Source of the DNA: a virus
Lineage: Duplodnaviria; Heunggongvirae; Uroviricota; Caudoviricetes
Strand: one strand, 5' to 3'
Length of the DNA stretch: 41,055 bases
Virus record (IMG/VR): IMGVR_UViG_2529293142_000021
Span: 1 to 41,055 of that record
The notes under the pieces are model-generated. The model saw only the letters and a program-made list of their open reading frames with translations. It ran no database searches and was not told the origin of the DNA. Shown here one piece after another: positions 3,917-16,331 of the stretch. Each line of letters opens with the position of its first letter. Position 1 is the first letter of the stretch. The position numbers and the translations under genes are program-made.

Positions 3917-4270
3917 TTATTTGTCGCGACGTTTAATAGACGTCTGATACTGCTGCTCGAGCTGGTGGAGTGCTGCTATAGCCTCAGAATAGGGGAGCTG
4001 ACGGAACGCGCGGAGTAACCGGATCTCATCGTCAGTGAGAGTGGTTAGATCTGGTGATTCTGTGCCGTAATCCAGCCAGGCTGGGGAGACGATGAGGTAT
4101 TCCGCCAGGGCGGACAATTTATCACTTCGCGGACGCGCGGTGCCGAGGGTGTACCGCCGCGCCATCTCATACGTAACAGAACAGACGGCGCTTAACTCTT
4201 TAACGGTTACGCGCCTTTTCTGCATTTCGGCAGTGAGCCGTTCAGCGAACGCGGCATATTTAGCGGGCAT
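3917..4270 (-). CDS. HTH regulator, CI-like paralog
   Basis: 117-aa protein with N-terminal HTH-like segment (VTVKELSAVCSVTYEMARRY) and a C-terminal region resembling that of the adjacent repressor (LRAFRQLP vs VYRALPP). Confidence 0.55.
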   Translation of the reverse strand: MPAKYAAFAERLTAEMQKRRVTVKELSAVCSVTYEMARRYTLGTARPRSDKLSALAEYLIVSPAWLDYGTESPDLTTLTDDEIRLLRAFRQLPYSEAIAALHQLEQQYQTSIKRRDK

Positions 4271-4276
4271 AAATTG

Positions 4277-4660
4277 TTATTTCTGGCGGGTCACTGGATC
4301 AACATTGTTAGCGTAATAATCGCGTAATGCCTCCAGCCTCATTTGAAACGCTGCGAGCATGTTGCGCTGCTCGATCGGGGGTAATGCTCTGTATACGTCA
4401 ACGAGCGCCCGTTCATCCTCGCTGAGAGCGCCCGCAGTTTTCTCGTCTTTCCCCGTGAGTAGCCAGTCCAGAGAAACATTGGCGGCGGCTGCGATTTTGG
4501 CGGCAGCCGCCTTACTGATAGTGCCTCGTTTGTGCCAGCCGTAAACCGACGACCGACTAACGTCGGCAATCCTGCCCATGTCGGCATCATTCCAGTGATT
4601 GCGCGTCGCTATCTCGTAAAGCCGCGCAGATAGCGGGGTGTCGTACGTTGTTTTTTTCAT
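4277..4660 (-). CDS. phage repressor, CI-like HTH protein
   Basis: 127-aa ORF transcribed divergently from the cro-like gene; HTH-like segment MGRIADVSRSSVYGWHKRG; position equivalent to cI. Confidence 0.65.
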   Translation of the reverse strand: MKKTTYDTPLSARLYEIATRNHWNDADMGRIADVSRSSVYGWHKRGTISKAAAAKIAAAANVSLDWLLTGKDEKTAGALSEDERALVDVYRALPPIEQRNMLAAFQMRLEALRDYYANNVDPVTRQK

Positions 4661-4767
4661 ACGGGCAATTATACGGCTTTACCTGATAGAAACAATTTAT
4701 ATTCCTGTTGACACGCTGTAAGGTTGTAGCTGACAATGTCAGTCATGGATTTACAAGGGGAACGATC
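4661..4767. promoter_or_regulatory. divergent promoter/operator region of the immunity switch
   Basis: Intergenic between divergent repressor and cro-like genes. TTGACA at 4708-4713; perfect 13-bp palindrome CTGACAATGTCAG at 4730-4742; AAGGGG Shine-Dalgarno before the ATG at 4768. Confidence 0.55.
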
Positions 4768-5181
4768 ATGACGGGTTTAGATAGAGCTATAAAAATTATC
4801 GGCAACCAGTGCCGCCTGGCTCTGGCGCTAAACGTGAGCGCCATGTCGGTAAACGACTGGGTGCATAAATACAAGGGCCGCGTTCCATCAGGGCGGGTCC
4901 AGGGAATTTTCCAAATTACCGGCGTTACTCCGCACGAGCTGCGCCCGGATTTGTACCCGAATCCAACGGACGGCCTGACCAGCTCGGCAGAGGCAGCACC
5001 GGTACGTCAGGGGGTGAGTGAGCAGGTGGGCGAATCAGTGCGCGAGTGTGCCGAGGCTCATTGCGCAGTGCTCACAAACGCGCCACCCGAGATTCAGGAG
5101 CGCGAGGCCCTCCAGGCAATAGCAGCGCTGGTCCCGTTTGTGCCTGGTCACCGGGTGTTAATCCTGCCGCGTGAGCAATAA
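4768..5181 (+). CDS. Cro-like HTH regulator with C-terminal extension
   Basis: Start taken at MTGLDRAIKIIGNQCRLALALNVSAMSVNDWV, which has a good RBS; the ORF track starts earlier at 4708. First rightward gene of the switch. Confidence 0.6.
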   Translation: MTGLDRAIKIIGNQCRLALALNVSAMSVNDWVHKYKGRVPSGRVQGIFQITGVTPHELRPDLYPNPTDGLTSSAEAAPVRQGVSEQVGESVRECAEAHCAVLTNAPPEIQEREALQAIAALVPFVPGHRVLILPREQ

Positions 5182-5193
5182 GCGGAGTATCGC

Positions 5194-6120
5194 ATGAGCG
5201 TGAAATTATCCGCGTGGGTTTGGGACGGTTGCGCGGCGGCGGGCATCAAAGGCAACAAGCTGCTGATCATGCTGCGCCTGGCTGATTACGCGAGCGACGA
5301 GGGGATCGCCTATCCGAGCGTGGCAACGATTGCACGGCAACTGGGAGCGGGCCGCAGCACCGTGATCGGGTTAATCAATGAACTGGTGCGCGACGGCTGG
5401 CTAACAAAACGAGAGCGCCGTCAGGGTCAACGCAGCACCAGTAATCTCTATACGCTGAATGTTTCGCGGTTGCGCAGAGCCGCCGCCGAGGCATACGCCG
5501 GGGGTCCAGATTCTGGACGTCCAGAAACTGAACCGCCAGAAACTGAACGTCCAGAAAACCCCAAAAAACCCGGTTCTGAGGGTCCAGAATCTGGACACGA
5601 TCCGTCAGTAAATTCAAAACAAGATCCGTCAGTAGAAAAACCTATTAGTCCGGACGCTACGCAACCGGACGCCGAACGGGGTGATGCAGATGAACTTTTA
5701 AACGGTCACCCGGAGGCTGTGATTTTCAGTGCGAAAAAGCGCCAGTGGGGGAGCCGTGAGGACCTGACCTGTGCGGAATGGATTTGGGGGAAAGTCGTGA
5801 GGCTGTACGAGCGGGCCGCTGAGTCAGACGGCGAGGTTGTACGACCGAGGGAGCCGAACTGGGCGGCCTGGGCAAACGAGGTGCGGCTGATGTGCAACCA
5901 AGACGGCAGGACGCATCGCCAGATCTGCGAGTTGTTCGAACGGGCAAACCGCGATCCGTTCTGGTGCAAAAACATTCTGTCACCGGGAAAGCTCCGCGAA
6001 AAATGGGATGACCTGTCGCTAAAACTCGCCGCGTACAGCGTGCCGCGCGAGGACCAGAATTTTAGAGCGAGCTACGACGACGTGGATTACAGCAAAGTGC
6101 CTGACGGGTTCAGGGTGTAG
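5194..6120 (+). CDS. replication initiation protein, O-like
   Basis: 308-aa ORF directly after cro-like gene; N-terminal HTH-like segment (YPSVATIARQLGAGRSTVIGLINEL); contains an internal cluster of short DNA repeats as expected for an origin inside an O-type gene. Confidence 0.65.
   Translation: MSVKLSAWVWDGCAAAGIKGNKLLIMLRLADYASDEGIAYPSVATIARQLGAGRSTVIGLINELVRDGWLTKRERRQGQRSTSNLYTLNVSRLRRAAAEAYAGGPDSGRPETEPPETERPENPKKPGSEGPESGHDPSVNSKQDPSVEKPISPDATQPDAERGDADELLNGHPEAVIFSAKKRQWGSREDLTCAEWIWGKVVRLYERAAESDGEVVRPREPNWAAWANEVRLMCNQDGRTHRQICELFERANRDPFWCKNILSPGKLREKWDDLSLKLAAYSVPREDQNFRASYDDVDYSKVPDGFRV
5500..5640. repeat. iteron-like repeat cluster, candidate origin
   Basis: GTCCAGAAACTGAAC repeated in tandem (about 5519-5559), TCCAGA(T/A)TCTGGA palindromes at about 5504-5518 and 5581-5596, GATCCGTCAGTA twice (about 5599-5634). 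Encodes the PETEPPETERPE low-complexity segment. Confidence 0.5.
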
Positions 6121-6162: not shown

Positions 6163-6873
6163 ATGGAAACTGTACTTGATGCGCTATCAGCGATGGGCAA
6201 GGCGAGCTATCGCGAAATCGCAGCCCGCCTGGTGATTGAACCGGTAGAAGCGTTAAACATGCTGCGCGACCAACGGGAACAGGGCAAATGCGATTTTGAG
6301 GACGGCGGCTGGTTTGTCTGCGGCGGAGCTAAATCAGTGCCACGGCCCCGCACTAAAAACCCCCGCGGCGAGGATTTGCCGCCAGTCGATCCAGTGGCGG
6401 TGGCGGCGCTGTTGCGCAGCAAGGGGCCGATGACCGCAACTGAACTGGCTGTTGCGTTCGACCGTGATCCACGCGGAATGCCTGGTTGTTTGCAGGGGCT
6501 GGCGCTGCGGGGTGTGGTCGAAAAGCTCGGGCAGGGCCGCCGCGTTACCTGGTCTGTGCCGGGTTACGTACCCGCGGAACCGCAAACAGAGCCGCAGGAA
6601 ACAGCACCAGCAGTGCCAGCAACAACAGAAACCGCAGTACCGGAGGTCGCGCAGGCAGAAGCCACCCCGGCACCAGAAAAAACGGTAGCGGAGCTGGTGG
6701 ACACTATCCCGACGTTCGTCGGTCGCCCGGATGACCTGCTGATCCCCACTGTGCGTAGTATCTCTAACGAAATACGACGAACTAAATCAAAACTCGCTGC
6801 GCTCGAAAATCTGCGCGATTCAGTGCGCACAATTCGACGCTATCAGCATATTGCCCGGGAGATTTCACAATGA
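6163..6873 (+). CDS. hypothetical replication-module protein
   Basis: Start at METVLDAL; two winged-helix-like segments (ASYREIAARL, MTATELAVAF) and a Pro/Glu/Thr-rich linker. No Walker motif. Confidence 0.5.
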   Translation: METVLDALSAMGKASYREIAARLVIEPVEALNMLRDQREQGKCDFEDGGWFVCGGAKSVPRPRTKNPRGEDLPPVDPVAVAALLRSKGPMTATELAVAFDRDPRGMPGCLQGLALRGVVEKLGQGRRVTWSVPGYVPAEPQTEPQETAPAVPATTETAVPEVAQAEATPAPEKTVAELVDTIPTFVGRPDDLLIPTVRSISNEIRRTKSKLAALENLRDSVRTIRRYQHIAREISQ

Positions 6874-7091
6874 GCGCCGCGAATTTACCCGCCTGCCCGG
6901 AGTGCGGAAACAGACCTGAATACGCATTCAAAATTGACTACCAGGGCTGGCACCGTGGCGGGCTGAAATGCCCCTACGACCACCACCGCGTATCACTCGA
7001 CAGCCCGGCGGGTACGCGCAAAAACGCAGAGGAAAGGCTGGCCCCACAGTGGTGTGAGCTGGTCGCAAAAATACAGGGAGAGACAGAATGA
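6870..7091 (+). CDS. small Cys-rich zinc-ribbon protein
   Basis: 73 aa with CPECG...CPYDHH...WC; start overlaps the previous stop. Confidence 0.4.
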   Translation: MSAANLPACPECGNRPEYAFKIDYQGWHRGGLKCPYDHHRVSLDSPAGTRKNAEERLAPQWCELVAKIQGETE

Positions 7092-8407
7092 GCGACGCAG
7101 CGATGATCATTGCGCCAACAGATATTCGCGAGATGGTGCGTGAGGTAGAGACGGCTTATTACCGGTATCTCGAAGAATTCCGCATCCCGGACGATCACAA
7201 AATCGTTGTGAATTTCTCCGCAGGAAAAGACAGCACTACAACAGCGACCATTGCGCATCACCTGTTCGGCGACCGTGTTAAAAATGTTATGGCGGATACT
7301 GATAACGAGCATGAATTAACTGTCGATTTTGCTCGTAATGTCCATCATCAAATCGGTTGTAAACCTGTTCAAATTGTTAAGCGCATTTACACCGAGGCGG
7401 AGTTTGAGCGCCGTCGCCAGTCTCTCAAAGACCGCTGGCCTAAACGCCAGGCAATTAGAATGGGGGCATATCGAGGTGTAATCATGCCATCGTTGGCGCG
7501 GGCAGATACCAAATTTGGTCAGGCATGGTTACGCACCGCTGAGCGCTGGGGGATTGAGTTTGAGACACCTCTGGAGGCCGCTATTTCAGTGATGCATCCG
7601 AGCGGAAACAGCTTCCTGGATGCTGCGTTATTGCATGGCAAATTTCCAATGCTGAGAGACCGTTTTTGTACTGACGAACTGAAAATTCAGATCGCTTTTG
7701 ACGCTGCGATAAAACCACTTTTGGATGATGGAGAGGTCGTCGTTCAGTGGTCTGGCGTTCGCGCAGATGAGTCTGACAAGCGCGCCGGTTATTCGAGATT
7801 TGCGCGTGACGAGCGTGATCCAGATTTCCTCTATAACTTCCTGCCTATTCATAAATGGACAGCGGCAGATGTTTTTGCGTTGCATAAATATTTCGGTATT
7901 AAACCAAATCCTCTGTACGTGCAGGGTGCGTCCCGTGTCGGTTGCATGAACTGCGTGTTGAGCACCAAAGAGGAAATTTCTGAGACGGCTGCACGCTGGC
8001 CTGAGCATATCGAAAAACACCATGCATGGGAGAAGAAAGTACGCCTGGCATCACGCTGGGTGCATTGGATGAGTGTCGGAACGGAAAGTCAGGCATGGAT
8101 GCGGTCACAGTTGGGATTTCGCATCGAAGCCTGGATGGGAGAGGATGAATTTACCGGAGAGGAAATTATGCGGAGCAGGAAATATCCAATAAACCTCGGT
8201 ACGGATATCAAACTATACGGCTTAGAGCCAGACATTCAGCGCATTGAGTGGTCAGGATTCTACGGGCCGCGCGGGAATATGGGTGCGCCGTCAGCGATTG
8301 ATGTTGTTGAGTGGGCGAAAACCGGGCGCGGCGGAAAGGTTTATGATCTGGTGAAGGCCAGCATGAACACTGCCGTGTGCTCTTCACGTTACGGATTATG
8401 CGAATAG
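7088..8407 (+). CDS. PAPS reductase-like PP-loop protein
   Basis: 439-aa ORF with PP-loop motif FSAGKDS near the N-terminus, as in the PAPS reductase / DndC-like family. Confidence 0.75.
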   Translation: MSDAAMIIAPTDIREMVREVETAYYRYLEEFRIPDDHKIVVNFSAGKDSTTTATIAHHLFGDRVKNVMADTDNEHELTVDFARNVHHQIGCKPVQIVKRIYTEAEFERRRQSLKDRWPKRQAIRMGAYRGVIMPSLARADTKFGQAWLRTAERWGIEFETPLEAAISVMHPSGNSFLDAALLHGKFPMLRDRFCTDELKIQIAFDAAIKPLLDDGEVVVQWSGVRADESDKRAGYSRFARDERDPDFLYNFLPIHKWTAADVFALHKYFGIKPNPLYVQGASRVGCMNCVLSTKEEISETAARWPEHIEKHHAWEKKVRLASRWVHWMSVGTESQAWMRSQLGFRIEAWMGEDEFTGEEIMRSRKYPINLGTDIKLYGLEPDIQRIEWSGFYGPRGNMGAPSAIDVVEWAKTGRGGKVYDLVKASMNTAVCSSRYGLCE

Positions 8408-10001: not shown

Positions 10002-10265
10002 CAATAATCACCCACCGGGGCTATATTCACCGAACGCCAGCAAAATCTGGCGTCGGGATTGGTCTCCCGGATATCTACTCAACGCATACCGCGTTAAGCG
10101 GTTTTTTATGCGTAAAGCACGGCTACACCCGCGAGTTATGGTGGGCTGTGTGAGGGCTTCTTAGGAAGCGCCGGGTTTGAGTAGCCGGTAAGACCAACCT
10201 TGCACAGTTCACCACCAGTCGATTGGTCTCGACGGTGGTGATGGTTAACCCACCGAGGTGACGCT

Positions 10266-10847
10266 ATGACTACTCAAATCACTATTTCTGATATCGCCAT
10301 TCATCAGGATAACGACGGACGTTATTCTATTAATGACCTGCACAAAGCATCCGGCGCTGAACATCGCCACCTGCCTAACTACTGGCTGGAATTGCAGCAA
10401 ACCAAAGAGTTAATCGAAGAGATCTTAAATACCGGAATTCCGGTAATTACTCCACCAGTGGTAAGCAGAAAGGGCCGTAACGGCGGCACCTACGTCTGCA
10501 AAGAACTGGTTTACGCCTACGCAATGTGGATCAGCGCTGCGTTCTCTCTCCGTGTAATCCGTGCCTACGATGCGCTGGTGGCGGAAAACAGCCAAAATAA
10601 CGCAATTACCGCCATCCCCACCAGCCCACACAGCTACTCGATCGTTACCTCATTTTGCGACGGCGAGCCGATTTACAGTCGTGTTATTCAACCTGGCGAA
10701 ATTTTGATTCATCGCGATGACCATATCGAACTGATGGCCCGCGCAGGCTACATGACGATCCACTGCAATGAGCTGGAAAAAATGGGCGCACCTGAGCTGG
10801 CGCGCCGCATCGAGGCAACGCGCAGAATGATGGATATCTGGGCGTAA
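10266..10847 (+). CDS. KilA-N domain protein, possible antirepressor
   Basis: N-terminal YSINDLHKASG...LPNYWLEL...GTYVCKELVYAYAMWIS pattern typical of the KilA-N DNA-binding domain. Confidence 0.65.
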   Translation: MTTQITISDIAIHQDNDGRYSINDLHKASGAEHRHLPNYWLELQQTKELIEEILNTGIPVITPPVVSRKGRNGGTYVCKELVYAYAMWISAAFSLRVIRAYDALVAENSQNNAITAIPTSPHSYSIVTSFCDGEPIYSRVIQPGEILIHRDDHIELMARAGYMTIHCNELEKMGAPELARRIEATRRMMDIWA

Positions 10848-12300: not shown

Positions 12301-12659
12301 TGGCAAAATATTCAATCACCCCACTGGGTAAACCCCGCATGACCCGTGCTGACAAATGGAAACAGCGCCCGCCGGTGCTGCGTTACCGCGTGTTTTGTGA
12401 TGAGGTCCGCTTAAGCGGCATTACGCTGCCCGAGAACGGCGCACACGTTGTATTTGTTATGCCTATGCCAGCGAGCTGGAGCCAGAAAAAACGCGCCAGC
12501 ATGAACGGTGCGGCCCACCAGCAAAAACCGGATATTGATAACCTCACTAAATCGCTGTTAGACGCCCTGTTTGATGACGATTCTCATATTTGGGATGTCC
12601 GGGCGTCGAAAATATGGGGCTATGAGGGCGCGATCGTGGTGCAGGAAGGTGCGGCATGA
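12300..12659 (+). CDS. rusA: Holliday junction resolvase RusA-like
   Basis: 119 aa; acidic motif PDIDNLTKSLLDALFDD characteristic of RusA family; typical position upstream of Q. Confidence 0.8.
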   Translation: MAKYSITPLGKPRMTRADKWKQRPPVLRYRVFCDEVRLSGITLPENGAHVVFVMPMPASWSQKKRASMNGAAHQQKPDIDNLTKSLLDALFDDDSHIWDVRASKIWGYEGAIVVQEGAA

Positions 12660-14563
12660 AATACGGTTCCGTTTGCAGCGGTATTGAGGCCGCGAGTGTG
12701 GCGTGGGAGTCCCTCGGCTGGCAGCCTGCATGGTTCGCAGAGATTGAGCCGTTCCCCGCCGCTGTGCTGGCGCATCACTGGCCGCAGGTCAAAAACCTTG
12801 GCGATATGACGAAAATCGCCGCCGGTGTCCTCGCTGATCAAATCGAGGCACCAGACGTGCTGGTGGGCGGCACTCCCTGCCAGGCATTCAGCGTTGCCGG
12901 ATTGCGCAATGGACTGGCCGACGAACGCGGACAATTGACCCTTTCTTACGTGGAATTAGCAAATGCAATCGATGACAAGCGCCGCCAGCGCGGTGAACGG
13001 GAATCAATCATCGTCTGGGAAAATGTCCCCGGCGTGCTCAACAGCAAAGACAACGCGTTCGGATGTTTTCTGGCTGGGCTTGCCGGAGAAAGCAGTGCGT
13101 TGCAGCCACCAGGGGGAAAATGGACGCTCGCAGGTTGTGTGCGTGGACCCGCGCGAAATATTGCCTGGCGAGTGCTCGACGCTCAATTTTTCGGAGTGGC
13201 ACAACGACGCCGCCGTGTGTTCGTTATCGCAAGTGCTAGAGACGATATCGATCCCGCAAAAATACTTTTTGAGTCCGACGGCGTGCGCCGGGATACTCCG
13301 CCGCGCAGAGAGTCGCAAACGGCAGTTGCCGCTCTTACTGCGCACGGCGTTGGAGCGTGTGGCGCAGACGACAACCAGGCGCAGGCAGGACATCTAATCC
13401 CTGAGATCAGCGCATATCGCATGACCGCATTCGGCGAGTATGCTGATGATGAAACTGCATCGACAGTTAAAGCGAGAGATTACAAAGATGCGACCGATCT
13501 GGCAGTTATGACGGTCCATGGCACACAGGATCCAGACGTTAACATCGAATTAGCGCACACGCTGGGGCGGAATAATGGGCAGGAAAATGCCTGCATAGCA
13601 TTCAGCTATAAAGATCACGGCCAAGATGCAGGATATGAAATAGCGCCTACTTTGCGGGCGGGGAATTGCGATACAGGGCGGGGTAACAGCGGGCAACCGC
13701 CAGCGGTCGCCAAGGCAATGCTCGTACGCCGTCTCACTCCGCGTGAGTGTGAGCGCCTCCAGGGATTCCCGGACGACCACACAAAAATACCCTGGCGCAA
13801 CAAACTGACTGAGGACTGTCCGGACGGGGCGCGATACAAAGCGATCGGCAATAGCATGGCAGTGCCGGTGATGCGCTGGATCGGCGAGCAAATTAAACGA
13901 GCAACAGCAACGCAGGAAATTATCTGTAATCCCTACGTCGCGGCGGTTGATAAATTACGCGCGCAGAATGAACACTATTTGCGCGAAGTTGGCGATCAGT
14001 GGCGCACTCCTGATCTGCTGTTTTGGGGTATTAATGCAATATTTGGCCCACTGGTCCTCGATCTGTTTACTGACGGCGATAATTCAAAATGTCCGAATTA
14101 CTACACGGCCGAACAAAACGCGCTAACGCAAGACTGGTCCGCGCGACTCGCGGATCTGGGCGGCGCTGCGTTCGCTAATCCGCCGTACAGTCGATCGCAG
14201 TATCACGACGGACAGGCGATCACCGGCATGGCCCACATCATGAGCCACGCCCGCTCAATGCGTGACGCTGGTGGGCGTTTTGTTTTCCTGCTGAAAGCCG
14301 CGCCATCGGAAACCTGGTGGCCGGAGGACGCGGATCACGTAACGTTTATTCGCGGTCGTGTCGGTTTTGATTTGCCAGCCTGGTTTAATCCTGCTGATGA
14401 AAAACAGGCACCCTCCAGCGCAAATTTTGCGGCGGCAATTGTTGTGCTGGATAAAAACTGGCGCGGGGGCCGGTTCGGATATATCCACCGCACAGAGCTG
14501 GAAGCGAAAGGCCGCGCCGCCCTGGCGCTGGCACGGTATGCAGTCAATGAGGCCATATTTTGA
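12656..14563 (+). CDS. fused C5-cytosine and N6-adenine DNA methyltransferase
   Basis: N-terminal half has C5-MTase motifs: GSVCSGIEAAS (I), GGTPCQAFSVAG (IV), ENVPG (VI), QRRRRVF (VIII), GNSMAVPV (X). C-terminal half has a phage Dam-like region with the NPPY catalytic motif (FANPPYSRS). No cognate endonuclease nearby. Confidence 0.85.
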   Translation: MKYGSVCSGIEAASVAWESLGWQPAWFAEIEPFPAAVLAHHWPQVKNLGDMTKIAAGVLADQIEAPDVLVGGTPCQAFSVAGLRNGLADERGQLTLSYVELANAIDDKRRQRGERESIIVWENVPGVLNSKDNAFGCFLAGLAGESSALQPPGGKWTLAGCVRGPARNIAWRVLDAQFFGVAQRRRRVFVIASARDDIDPAKILFESDGVRRDTPPRRESQTAVAALTAHGVGACGADDNQAQAGHLIPEISAYRMTAFGEYADDETASTVKARDYKDATDLAVMTVHGTQDPDVNIELAHTLGRNNGQENACIAFSYKDHGQDAGYEIAPTLRAGNCDTGRGNSGQPPAVAKAMLVRRLTPRECERLQGFPDDHTKIPWRNKLTEDCPDGARYKAIGNSMAVPVMRWIGEQIKRATATQEIICNPYVAAVDKLRAQNEHYLREVGDQWRTPDLLFWGINAIFGPLVLDLFTDGDNSKCPNYYTAEQNALTQDWSARLADLGGAAFANPPYSRSQYHDGQAITGMAHIMSHARSMRDAGGRFVFLLKAAPSETWWPEDADHVTFIRGRVGFDLPAWFNPADEKQAPSSANFAAAIVVLDKNWRGGRFGYIHRTELEAKGRAALALARYAVNEAIF

Positions 14564-15566: not shown

Positions 15567-16331
15567 ATGCAGGGTCAACCCAAGACTAAACACCAAGAGT
15601 TGGTCGAGACGCTATCATTATATATAAACTCGCGAACCCCGTTAGAGGAGCCTCTTTTGGGTGAGCTCTTACGCGAGATTAATAAGCAGTCCGTTGCCTC
15701 TCGTGCATATCTGATGGCTTTGTGGATGGAGGCTCAGAACAGGCATGATGAGACAGTGGCATGGTATCTAGAGGCGATAGCTACTTCTGGTGAGCACGCT
15801 TCTGTTGTTGCAGGTAACTATCTGAGTTACCTGAGTTGCTCAGCGCATAATCTTTTTCACAGAACAGAATTATTTCGATTGGTAGATATATATTGTACTA
15901 AGCGGATAAGAAGAATGGCCAGGAATGCAGCATTTTGCATGGGAAATGACCGGCTTGTTAACCGATTCACTGTGATGATGAAGGCTTTACTCGATGGCCA
16001 AGAACGTGAAGAAATCGAGCGTGAGGGGGCAAAAATGGTGGAAGCTATTGTCACTTTTAAAGAAGCCACTAAGCTAACTTCATCTGAAATCCAGAAGCTG
16101 TGTGATTCAGCTGAGCAAATTGCAAATAGCCATGGCGTGAATTGTGCGGGTGTTGAGTATTTTCTTAGCGGTGGATACGACAACGCCATAATTCTGTTTG
16201 CAGATACTAGCGACTCTAGCACTCTTACCACCATGAACATGGAACTCATAGGCTTGCTTGCTGATGATCCCTATATAGACCGTCCATTTACTTCATGGTT
16301 TAAGAGTTCTGATATGAAGGATCGGGTGTAA
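15567..16331 (+). CDS. hypothetical protein, gene A of the Q-holin cassette
   Basis: 254-aa ORF, AT-rich relative to flanks; stop overlaps the start of the next ORF (TAATG); no Walker A or other catalytic motif recognised. Confidence 0.65.
   Translation: MQGQPKTKHQELVETLSLYINSRTPLEEPLLGELLREINKQSVASRAYLMALWMEAQNRHDETVAWYLEAIATSGEHASVVAGNYLSYLSCSAHNLFHRTELFRLVDIYCTKRIRRMARNAAFCMGNDRLVNRFTVMMKALLDGQEREEIEREGAKMVEAIVTFKEATKLTSSEIQKLCDSAEQIANSHGVNCAGVEYFLSGGYDNAIILFADTSDSSTLTTMNMELIGLLADDPYIDRPFTSWFKSSDMKDRV

Follow-up and report, generated by a model that had tools for sequence, protein, structure and literature searches.

The window analysed here, a stretch of 41,055 nucleotides (nt) comprising positions 1 to 41,055 of the IMG/VR virus record IMGVR_UViG_2529293142_000021, is a lambdoid prophage, and it contains a gene resembling the replication gene O in whose middle lies a cluster of short palindromic repeats. 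This locus raises the question of whether the cluster is simply the coding sequence of a protein linker or the site at which the prophage initiates its own replication. That lambdoid origins lie within the initiator gene is a textbook principle, and the protein family is already termed 'O-like' in PHROGs and in several phage records. A preliminary description of the window had read the repeats as lambdoid-origin iterons within the O gene, and all the computational tests reported below agree with this interpretation. The region 5504-5645 is very probably the vegetative replication origin of this lambdoid Escherichia coli prophage, situated inside the linker-coding part of its own initiator gene; the reading is supported by its position, its AT-rich neighbour, the constraint on the DNA, the co-variation with the recognition helix of the initiator and a copy-number change in steps of 15 base pairs (bp). 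The gene and the elements of the region are as follows.

5194-6120, + strand: O-like replication initiator gene, 308 amino acids (aa), which holds the array.
5194-5484, + strand: codes for the N-terminal winged-helix domain (aa 1-97), which presumably reads the iterons.
5504-5518: iteron 1, GTCCAGATTCTGGAC, a perfect palindrome with 7-bp arms and 1 central base (7-1-7).
5519-5533: iteron 2, GTCCAGAAACTGAAC, with 1 mismatch to the consensus.
5534-5548: iteron 3, CGCCAGAAACTGAAC, with 3 mismatches to the consensus.
5549-5563: iteron 4, GTCCAGAAAACCCCA, degenerate, with a left half-site only, running into an A6 tract at 5563-5568.
5582-5596: iteron 5, GTCCAGAATCTGGAC, isolated, a perfect 7-1-7 palindrome 33 bp after iteron 4.
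5597-5645: AT-rich block with two copies of GATCCGTCAGTA, the presumed DNA-unwinding region.
5710-6021, + strand: codes for the C-terminal domain (aa 173-276), a homologue of that of lambda O.

Examination of the raw sequence reveals that units 1-4 are 15-bp units arranged head to tail over 5504-5563, with 18 bp, the A6 tract included, separating unit 4 from unit 5. A repeat search gives start-to-start spacings of 15, 15, 15 and 33, and Tandem Repeats Finder reports a period of 15 with 3.6 copies (score 73). Unit 5 is the reverse complement of unit 1, and the two copies of GATCCGTCAGTA (5599-5610 and 5623-5634) lie 24 bp apart. Allowing up to 3 mismatches, GTCCAGAWWCTGGAC has 11 strand-matches in the window against 1.43 expected, a number reached by 0 of 100 shuffles, and 7 of these 11 fall within 5504-5596; GATCCGTCAGTA, with up to 1 mismatch, has 3 matches against 0.13 expected. 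The GC content falls to its minimum for the gene at 5600-5659 (0.40, versus about 0.6-0.67 in the flanking coding sequence). The elements that the preliminary description had picked out at 5500-5640 are thus all present: its tandem repeats are four 15-bp units occurring above chance, its two TCCAGA(T/A)TCTGGA palindromes are at 5504-5518 and 5582-5596, and its duplicated sequence is the pair of GATCCGTCAGTA copies; that these lie within an O-like open reading frame (ORF) and translate to a low-complexity linker is borne out by the protein analysis below.

With no gap between the tandem units, the orientation of the half-sites switches every 7-8 bp, and junctions such as TCTGGAC/GTCCAGA are also palindromic; the stand-alone fifth unit argues for GTCCAGA-W-TCTGGAC as the predicted dimer site. 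Elsewhere in the window there is no second repeat cluster, only single sites at 1445 (2 mismatches) and 18655 (3 mismatches). The former, a near-copy of the iteron (GTCCAGAATCTGCGC, 1445-1459, within the integrase gene), is probably a chance occurrence, given that about 1.4 such matches are expected in the window.

The product of the 5194-6120 ORF matches PHROG 391, 'replication initiation O-like', with E = 1.4e-95 (residues 1-307 on positions 1-297 of the 298-position profile). Its N-terminus contains a winged helix of the Pfam family HTH_36 (aa 17-70, E = 5e-12), with weaker Pfam matches to DnaD_N and MarR-type domains; a sequence search of PDB found weak N-terminal similarity to the MarR-type protein YetL and to DnaD, and no informative solved relative. 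The C-terminal region, aa 173-276, aligns in BLASTP with aa 179-270 of lambda O (46% identity over 104 aa, E = 2e-26), and tblastn matches this region to the O proteins of lambda, 434, 933W and H-19B and to gene 15 of phi80, whose C-terminus is 37% identical to the window protein; BLASTP against lambda O gave no N-terminal alignment. The array occupies nt 311-403 of the 927-nt gene, between HTH_36 and the lambda-O-like domain, and encodes a disordered-looking, low-complexity, acidic linker rich in Pro, Ser and Glu, GPDSGRPETEPPETERPENPKKPGSEGPESGHDPSVNSKQDPSVEKP. The exact protein is present on 105 E. coli contigs, which identifies E. coli as the host, and a near-identity search of the phage collection recovered only a 75% partial match in one Klebsiella phage. 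Matches to the first 82-95 residues of the initiator also occur in other contexts without a repeat array (L080 and L084, both from E. coli, and L078), one of them within a 455-aa E. coli ORF; these may represent fusions or decayed copies of the N-terminal domain.

A genome scan with one genome per species returned 80 Enterobacterales loci, which were compared along with five phage records; more than 110 loci were examined overall, from Escherichia, Shigella, Klebsiella, Pantoea, Providencia, Proteus, Yersinia and others. About 75 of the 80 scanned loci contain an array of 15-bp period starting at gene nt 295-320, and the common layout is the array, an A-run, GGTTTTGACCC, the isolated unit and then GATCCGTCAGTAAAtTCAAaacaaGATCCATCAG; in all, about 110 relatives from Enterobacterales prophages show this arrangement at the corresponding point of the gene. 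Even the details of the window recur in these relatives: there too the tandem series ends in a degenerate unit with the A-run behind it, and the isolated unit is kept at the same 33-bp offset. The units recognised per locus range from 2 to 10 among the genome-scan and phage loci. At closer range, E. coli proteins 96-100% identical to that of the window are 308, 313 or 318 aa long, the gain in the longer ones being ERPES or ERPESERPES in the array as the sole difference, which corresponds at the DNA level to one or two additional GTCCAGAATCTGAAC units; apart from its two extra GTCCAGAATCTGAAC units, the DNA of the 318-aa allele is nearly identical to that of the window. The preliminary description had proposed comparing the repeat number across relatives and had regarded absence of the repeats from close relatives as an argument against its reading. 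The number proves to vary in whole 15-bp units among near-identical genes, and no close relative without repeats was found. The locus from Tatumella saanichensis (L019) is organised differently at gene nt ~300-480, where multi-unit blocks of ~60 bp are duplicated in place of a simple 15-bp array.

The N-terminus, array and GATC-containing AT-rich block precede a lambda-O-like C-terminus in 66 genes and C-termini unrelated to it in 67; for instance, one gene (L014) combines an N-terminus 88% identical to that of the window with a different C-terminus. This distribution points to the DNA-binding domain and the origin being one specificity cassette, as in the classical lambdoid rule.

Comparison of the arrays across the family indicates which part of the protein might read them. 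The inner core (T/C)CAGA-W-TCTG(A/G) is common to the whole family, and the outer two bases vary. The sub-family of the window has GT flanks, GT(C/T)CAGA...TCTG(G/A)AC, and includes loci in Klebsiella spallanzanii, Entomohabitans, Trabulsiella and Tatumella together with 48 IMG/VR contigs, whereas the main family has CG or CA flanks (the CG-type unit of phage PhiR49_1 is CGTCAAAATCTGACG). With GT-type arrays the initiator invariably (39/39) displays the recognition helix G-A-G-R-S-T-V-I and the wing G(Q/A)R, whereas with CG/CA-type arrays it displays, in 75/75 cases, the helix x-S-T-(V/I)-R and the wing GNR; a third small group with CTC flanks (L036, L073) has the helix S-T-I-R-G. We accordingly predict a specificity code in which GT flanks correspond to R-S-T-V-I/GQR and CG flanks to S-T-V-R/GNR.

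Dyad symmetry and co-variation alone do not show initiation, and it is conceivable that the units bind the initiator without constituting an origin, serving instead as an autoregulatory roadblock, a copy-control (handcuffing) array or a means of titrating O, with replication starting elsewhere. Iterons do act in plasmid copy control, and a helicase loader was not found in the early region, both of which speak in favour of such a role. However, the locus displays the full ori-lambda layout, with an array, a constrained AT-rich stretch and the linker position in an O homologue; the window offers no other repeat cluster; and the N-terminus, array and AT-rich block are inherited as one cassette. 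This alternative survives better than the others, and even so we consider it improbable. More improbable still is that the array is chiefly a recombination hotspot or module boundary at which N- and C-terminal initiator modules are swapped between phages. The homology break between the C-terminal types indeed falls just after the block, but a hotspot does not conflict with the origin reading; the specificity module of lambdoid phages comprises both the N-terminal domain and ori, and the dyad symmetry and helix co-variation would be left unexplained.

The constraint on the repeat DNA was assessed by keeping the linker peptide of the window fixed and drawing synonymous codons from the window's own usage in 20,000 trials. 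Two perfect 7-1-7 palindromes arise in 0.08% of these resamplings, and the observed lag-15 identity is reached in 2%. Proline is encoded by CCA in 5/5 of the repeat cores, versus 0/10 of the prolines in the rest of the gene. A similar picture emerges from 288 protein-defined S-x-S-x units drawn from 78 distinct loci, when their codons are compared with those in the N-terminal domains of the same genes: TCA encodes the first Ser in 93% of the units (versus 11%), TCT the second in 85% (versus 9%), and AAA encodes Lys in 150/150 (versus 60%). This position-specific codon choice builds the dyad G-TCA-AAA-TCT-GAC. In a block of 114 nt around the first GATC, codons with a conserved amino acid are the major codon at a frequency of 0.90, the value for the N-terminal domain being 0.52. 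The codons GAT, TCA, GTA, TCA, GAT, TCT, GAA and TTT are fixed at 100%, the first five of them in the AT-rich block at 5597-5645 across 76 distinct relatives; the isolated unit 5 is the most conserved unit of the family.

These observations bear on the very improbable alternative that the repeats are mere coding sequence for a slippage-prone, low-complexity linker devoid of any cis role. In its favour, the region encodes a disordered-looking linker, its copy number shifts in frame by 5 aa, and a single reading frame is used throughout the family. While direct repeats could come from slippage, dyad symmetry and synonymous conservation at saturated divergence could not. Moreover, the TCA/TCT and AAA choices persist between genes that share only 53-65% identity in the N-terminal domain, the major-codon use of the origin block is far above that of the N-terminal domain, the dyad persists while the peptide varies between PETE-type and SKSD-type, and the flanks co-vary with the recognition helix. 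These patterns show that the repeat DNA is constrained beyond the requirements of the protein. Least probable of all is a constraint at the RNA level, in which the palindromes, folded into hairpins on the early-right transcript, would govern the translation, stability or termination of the initiator messenger RNA: a single strand of the region is more stably folded than its shuffles (-21.9 kcal/mol, z = -2.9) and a terminator-like site lies on the minus strand (5581-5559), but the z-score is modest and a trivial consequence of the palindromes, no Rfam family matches the array region, and neither the co-variation with DNA-binding residues of the protein nor the conserved AT-rich GATC block is predicted.

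The element following the isolated unit, GATCCGTCAGTAAAtTCAAaacaaGATCC(A/G)TCAG, shows conservation of its synonymous sites throughout the family (5597-5645 in the window and the loci L001-L135), with the second GATC being GAAC in some loci. GATC clustering as a sequestration signal was considered and rejected: GATC has 167 matches in the window, about 1 site per 490 bp, with no local enrichment, and the point of note about the pair is solely its conservation across relatives. No DnaA box (TTWTNCACA) is found near the array, and the window has a single match, at 15853, against 4.1 expected.

The inferred origin shares several features with ori-lambda, as seen in lambda and the Shiga toxin (Stx) phages. 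Both lie in the linker-coding middle of the initiator gene, and both consist of several direct repeats with internal dyad symmetry and an AT-rich stretch on the promoter-distal side; lambda imm434 has four iterons at nt 349-435 of its 900-nt gene, with spacings of 20, 24 and 23 bp, followed by an AT-rich tract. The C-terminal domains of the initiators, in lambda O the part that interacts with P, are homologous, at the 46% identity given above. In both systems the iteron number also varies between close relatives and thereby adds residues to the protein: lambda has 4 iterons and Stx phages have 6, with 13 additional aa, and the extra Stx iterons, to which O binds, are required for plasmid replication (PMC7466680). 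On the other hand, the N-terminal domain of the window protein is of the HTH_36 type, and no similarity between it and the N-terminus of lambda O was detected. The window units are 15 bp long and abut, whereas those of lambda are 18-20 bp long and spaced 20-24 bp, and the fifth unit of the window is set apart by 33 bp. The AT-rich part of the window is less extreme than the tract of lambda and contains a conserved pair of GATC-containing 12-mers, and the gene that follows is that of DUF1627 instead of P. On account of the HTH_36 N-terminus and the lack of a P-like gene following it, the replicon is lambda-like in logic and not a lambda O/P replicon. Two other potential comparisons were discarded. 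The Eru-type Stx replication region (PMC8044961) was dropped, there being no fitting description of DUF1627, PAPS or an origin in the text. The lambda palindrome TCGTCAGAGAATTCTGGCGAATCC, to the right of the AT-rich region, was rejected as a vestigial iteron of this family: local alignment of the family consensus to lambda O scores 19, compared to 18.5 +/- 2.3 for codon-shuffled controls (43% of which reach it), and the best alignment in lambda O is not at TCGTCAGAGAATTCTGGCGAATCC.

Gene 15 of phi80, gene 18 of P22 and the corresponding regions of phages 21 and 82 are similar to the window in that the N-terminal domain and its cognate repeats form one cassette, and differ from it in the repeat sequence and the DNA-binding domain. 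The phages with PHROG 391 proteins, namely PhiR49_1, vB_EcoS-733R5, Kp4874-4, YeP2 and phiP27 (gene L17), from E. coli, Klebsiella and Yersinia, belong to the same protein family as the window protein (54-57% identity, either across the entire protein or confined to the N-terminus) and share with the window the position and layout of the array and the lack of an annotated P. Their units are of the form (C)GTCAAAATCTGAC(G), encoding S-K-S-D, whereas those of the window, GTCCAGAWWCTGGAC, encode P-E-T-E, and the changes in the recognition helix and wing match the repeat type. Further, phiP27 and YeP2 have other C-terminal domains, and in phiP27 genes for DnaC-like and DnaB-like proteins are located downstream of L17. 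Iteron plasmid origins of the pSC101, R6K, RK2 and P1 type likewise place an initiator-binding array beside an AT-rich unwinding region and use a winged-helix initiator. However, plasmid iterons are usually 17-22 bp long, asymmetric and outside the rep gene, with DnaA boxes nearby, in contrast to the palindromic, intragenic units of the window, which have no DnaA box near them.

Several points weigh against placing the origin at 5504-5645. The literature search yielded no experiments that demonstrate binding or origin activity in the family; with incomplete coverage, it found no description of the origin or its repeats, and searches with the repeat sequences gave unrelated primers only. The abutting 15-bp units correspond to about 1.4 helical turns, as against the 20-24 bp spacing of lambda, so that the geometry of the complex would be unlike that of the lambda O-some. 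Pfam at E <= 0.01 identifies only HTH_36 and other helix-turn-helix families in the protein, and no match to the family of the lambda O N-terminus (Phage_rep_O). No P-like, DnaC-like or DnaB-like gene or PHROG was found among the early genes up to Q (to 15240). All arrays share one reading frame, and selection on the peptide is therefore not fully separable from that on the DNA. The GT group is one clade, and its co-variation may reflect a single evolutionary event; furthermore, the 48 GT-type IMG/VR loci were retrieved with a GT-type repeat query, although the protein motif lies outside that query. Finally, the GATCCGTCAG pair in the AT-rich block is unchanged between GT- and CG-type initiators, and for this reason it is probably not read by the specificity-determining residues.

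By analogy with ori-lambda, we infer a course of binding, unwinding, helicase recruitment and origin firing for the proposed origin. Dimers formed by the N-terminal winged helix of the initiator would bind the dyad-symmetric 15-bp units GT(C/T)CAGAWWCTG(G/A)AC, occupying the four abutting units and the isolated perfect unit 33 bp further on. The resulting nucleoprotein complex would bend or stress the DNA, upon which the adjacent AT-rich block with its two GATCCGTCAGTA repeats would melt, and the lambda-O-like C-terminal domain would then recruit the replicative helicase. Transcription from a pR-like promoter might run through the site.

A more elaborate picture is also conceivable, though we regard it as unlikely in its entirety: a P-independent lambdoid replicon combined with a GATC module read by the host and a filament of the initiator. 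First, the initiator may recruit the host helicase without a phage loader, or DUF1627 may be a new type of loader. Second, as GATCCGTCAGTAAAtTCAAaacaaGATCC is unchanged when the specificity of the initiator changes, it could act as a control module of its own that gates unwinding, its reader being either a host factor (Dam methylation/SeqA) or a conserved part of O. Third, the abutting 15-bp palindromes would nucleate a continuous filament of the initiator, a structure that differs from the lambda O-some.

The genes surrounding the initiator conform to the lambdoid pattern.

740-1867, - strand: integrase.
3917-4660, - strand: two cI-like helix-turn-helix repressor-like genes (117 aa, HTH_3; 127 aa, Phage_CI_repr).
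4708-4737, + strand: pR-like sigma-70 promoter, TTGACA-18-GACAAT, a consensus match only (10/12 positions).
6163-6870: DUF1627 gene, downstream of the initiator gene.
Downstream of the initiator gene, beside the DUF1627 and PAPS-reductase-like genes: 73-aa ORF.
7088-8407: PAPS-reductase-like gene.

The cI-like genes, in neither of which a Pfam scan detects a peptidase S24 match, are divergent from the early-right operon, and the pR-like site is placed between them and a YdaS/Cro-like gene; this candidate promoter would drive the cro-like and initiator genes through the origin. The TTG start listed for the YdaS/Cro-like ORF (4708-5181) coincides with the -35 hexamer of the promoter-like site at 4708-4737, and its true start is therefore probably a downstream ATG, with a product beginning near MTGLDRAIK. 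The DUF1627 gene, for which no functional literature was found, also adjoins the 318-aa allele in a close E. coli relative (L137/L138). Further on, the gene order runs through RusA, a large methyltransferase, Q, lysis genes and terminase. A 635-aa ORF after RusA (12656-14563) has DNA methyltransferase matches over aa 1-420, while its aa 425-629 match a PHROG labelled PAPS reductase, and the window thus holds two PAPS-reductase-like regions. Rfam identifies isrK at 10034-10108 (66.9 bits) and the C4 antisense RNA at 10134-10219 (71.3 bits) directly upstream of an anti-repressor/regulator-like gene (10266-10847), a region that resembles the C4-ant immunity module of the P1/P7 type in a lambdoid prophage.

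The initiator gene also has counterparts in the immune memory of E. coli. Type I-E arrays of clustered regularly interspaced short palindromic repeats (CRISPR) located next to iap contain spacers identical over 32 nt to the window, with protospacers at 5381-5412, 5462-5493 and 6006-6037 on the + strand and 7603-7634 on the - strand (loci L086 and L087). In strain MDR_56 two adjacent spacers match the stretch of the initiator gene shortly before the iterons, and another matches the PAPS-reductase-like gene; another strain has the spacer against 6006-6037. All three protospacers in the initiator gene are preceded by ATG, a working protospacer-adjacent motif of type I-E systems. CRISPR-spacer-type matches occur in 542 of 5426 complete E. 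coli genomes, and a copy of the gene itself in none of them.

Together these observations indicate where the origin probably lies in a widespread group of prophage replicons of Enterobacterales, whose initiators are usually annotated only as 'helix-turn-helix domain-containing protein'. This could be of use in annotation, in the construction of compatible phage-derived vectors and in interpreting defence systems that sense phage origins, such as Lamassu, which has been reported to be enriched at lambda iterons (bioRxiv 10.1101/2025.04.02.646746). The general picture of lambdoid origin organisation is unchanged by these findings; their wider interest lies in helicase loading without a P-like protein and in the invariant GATC element.

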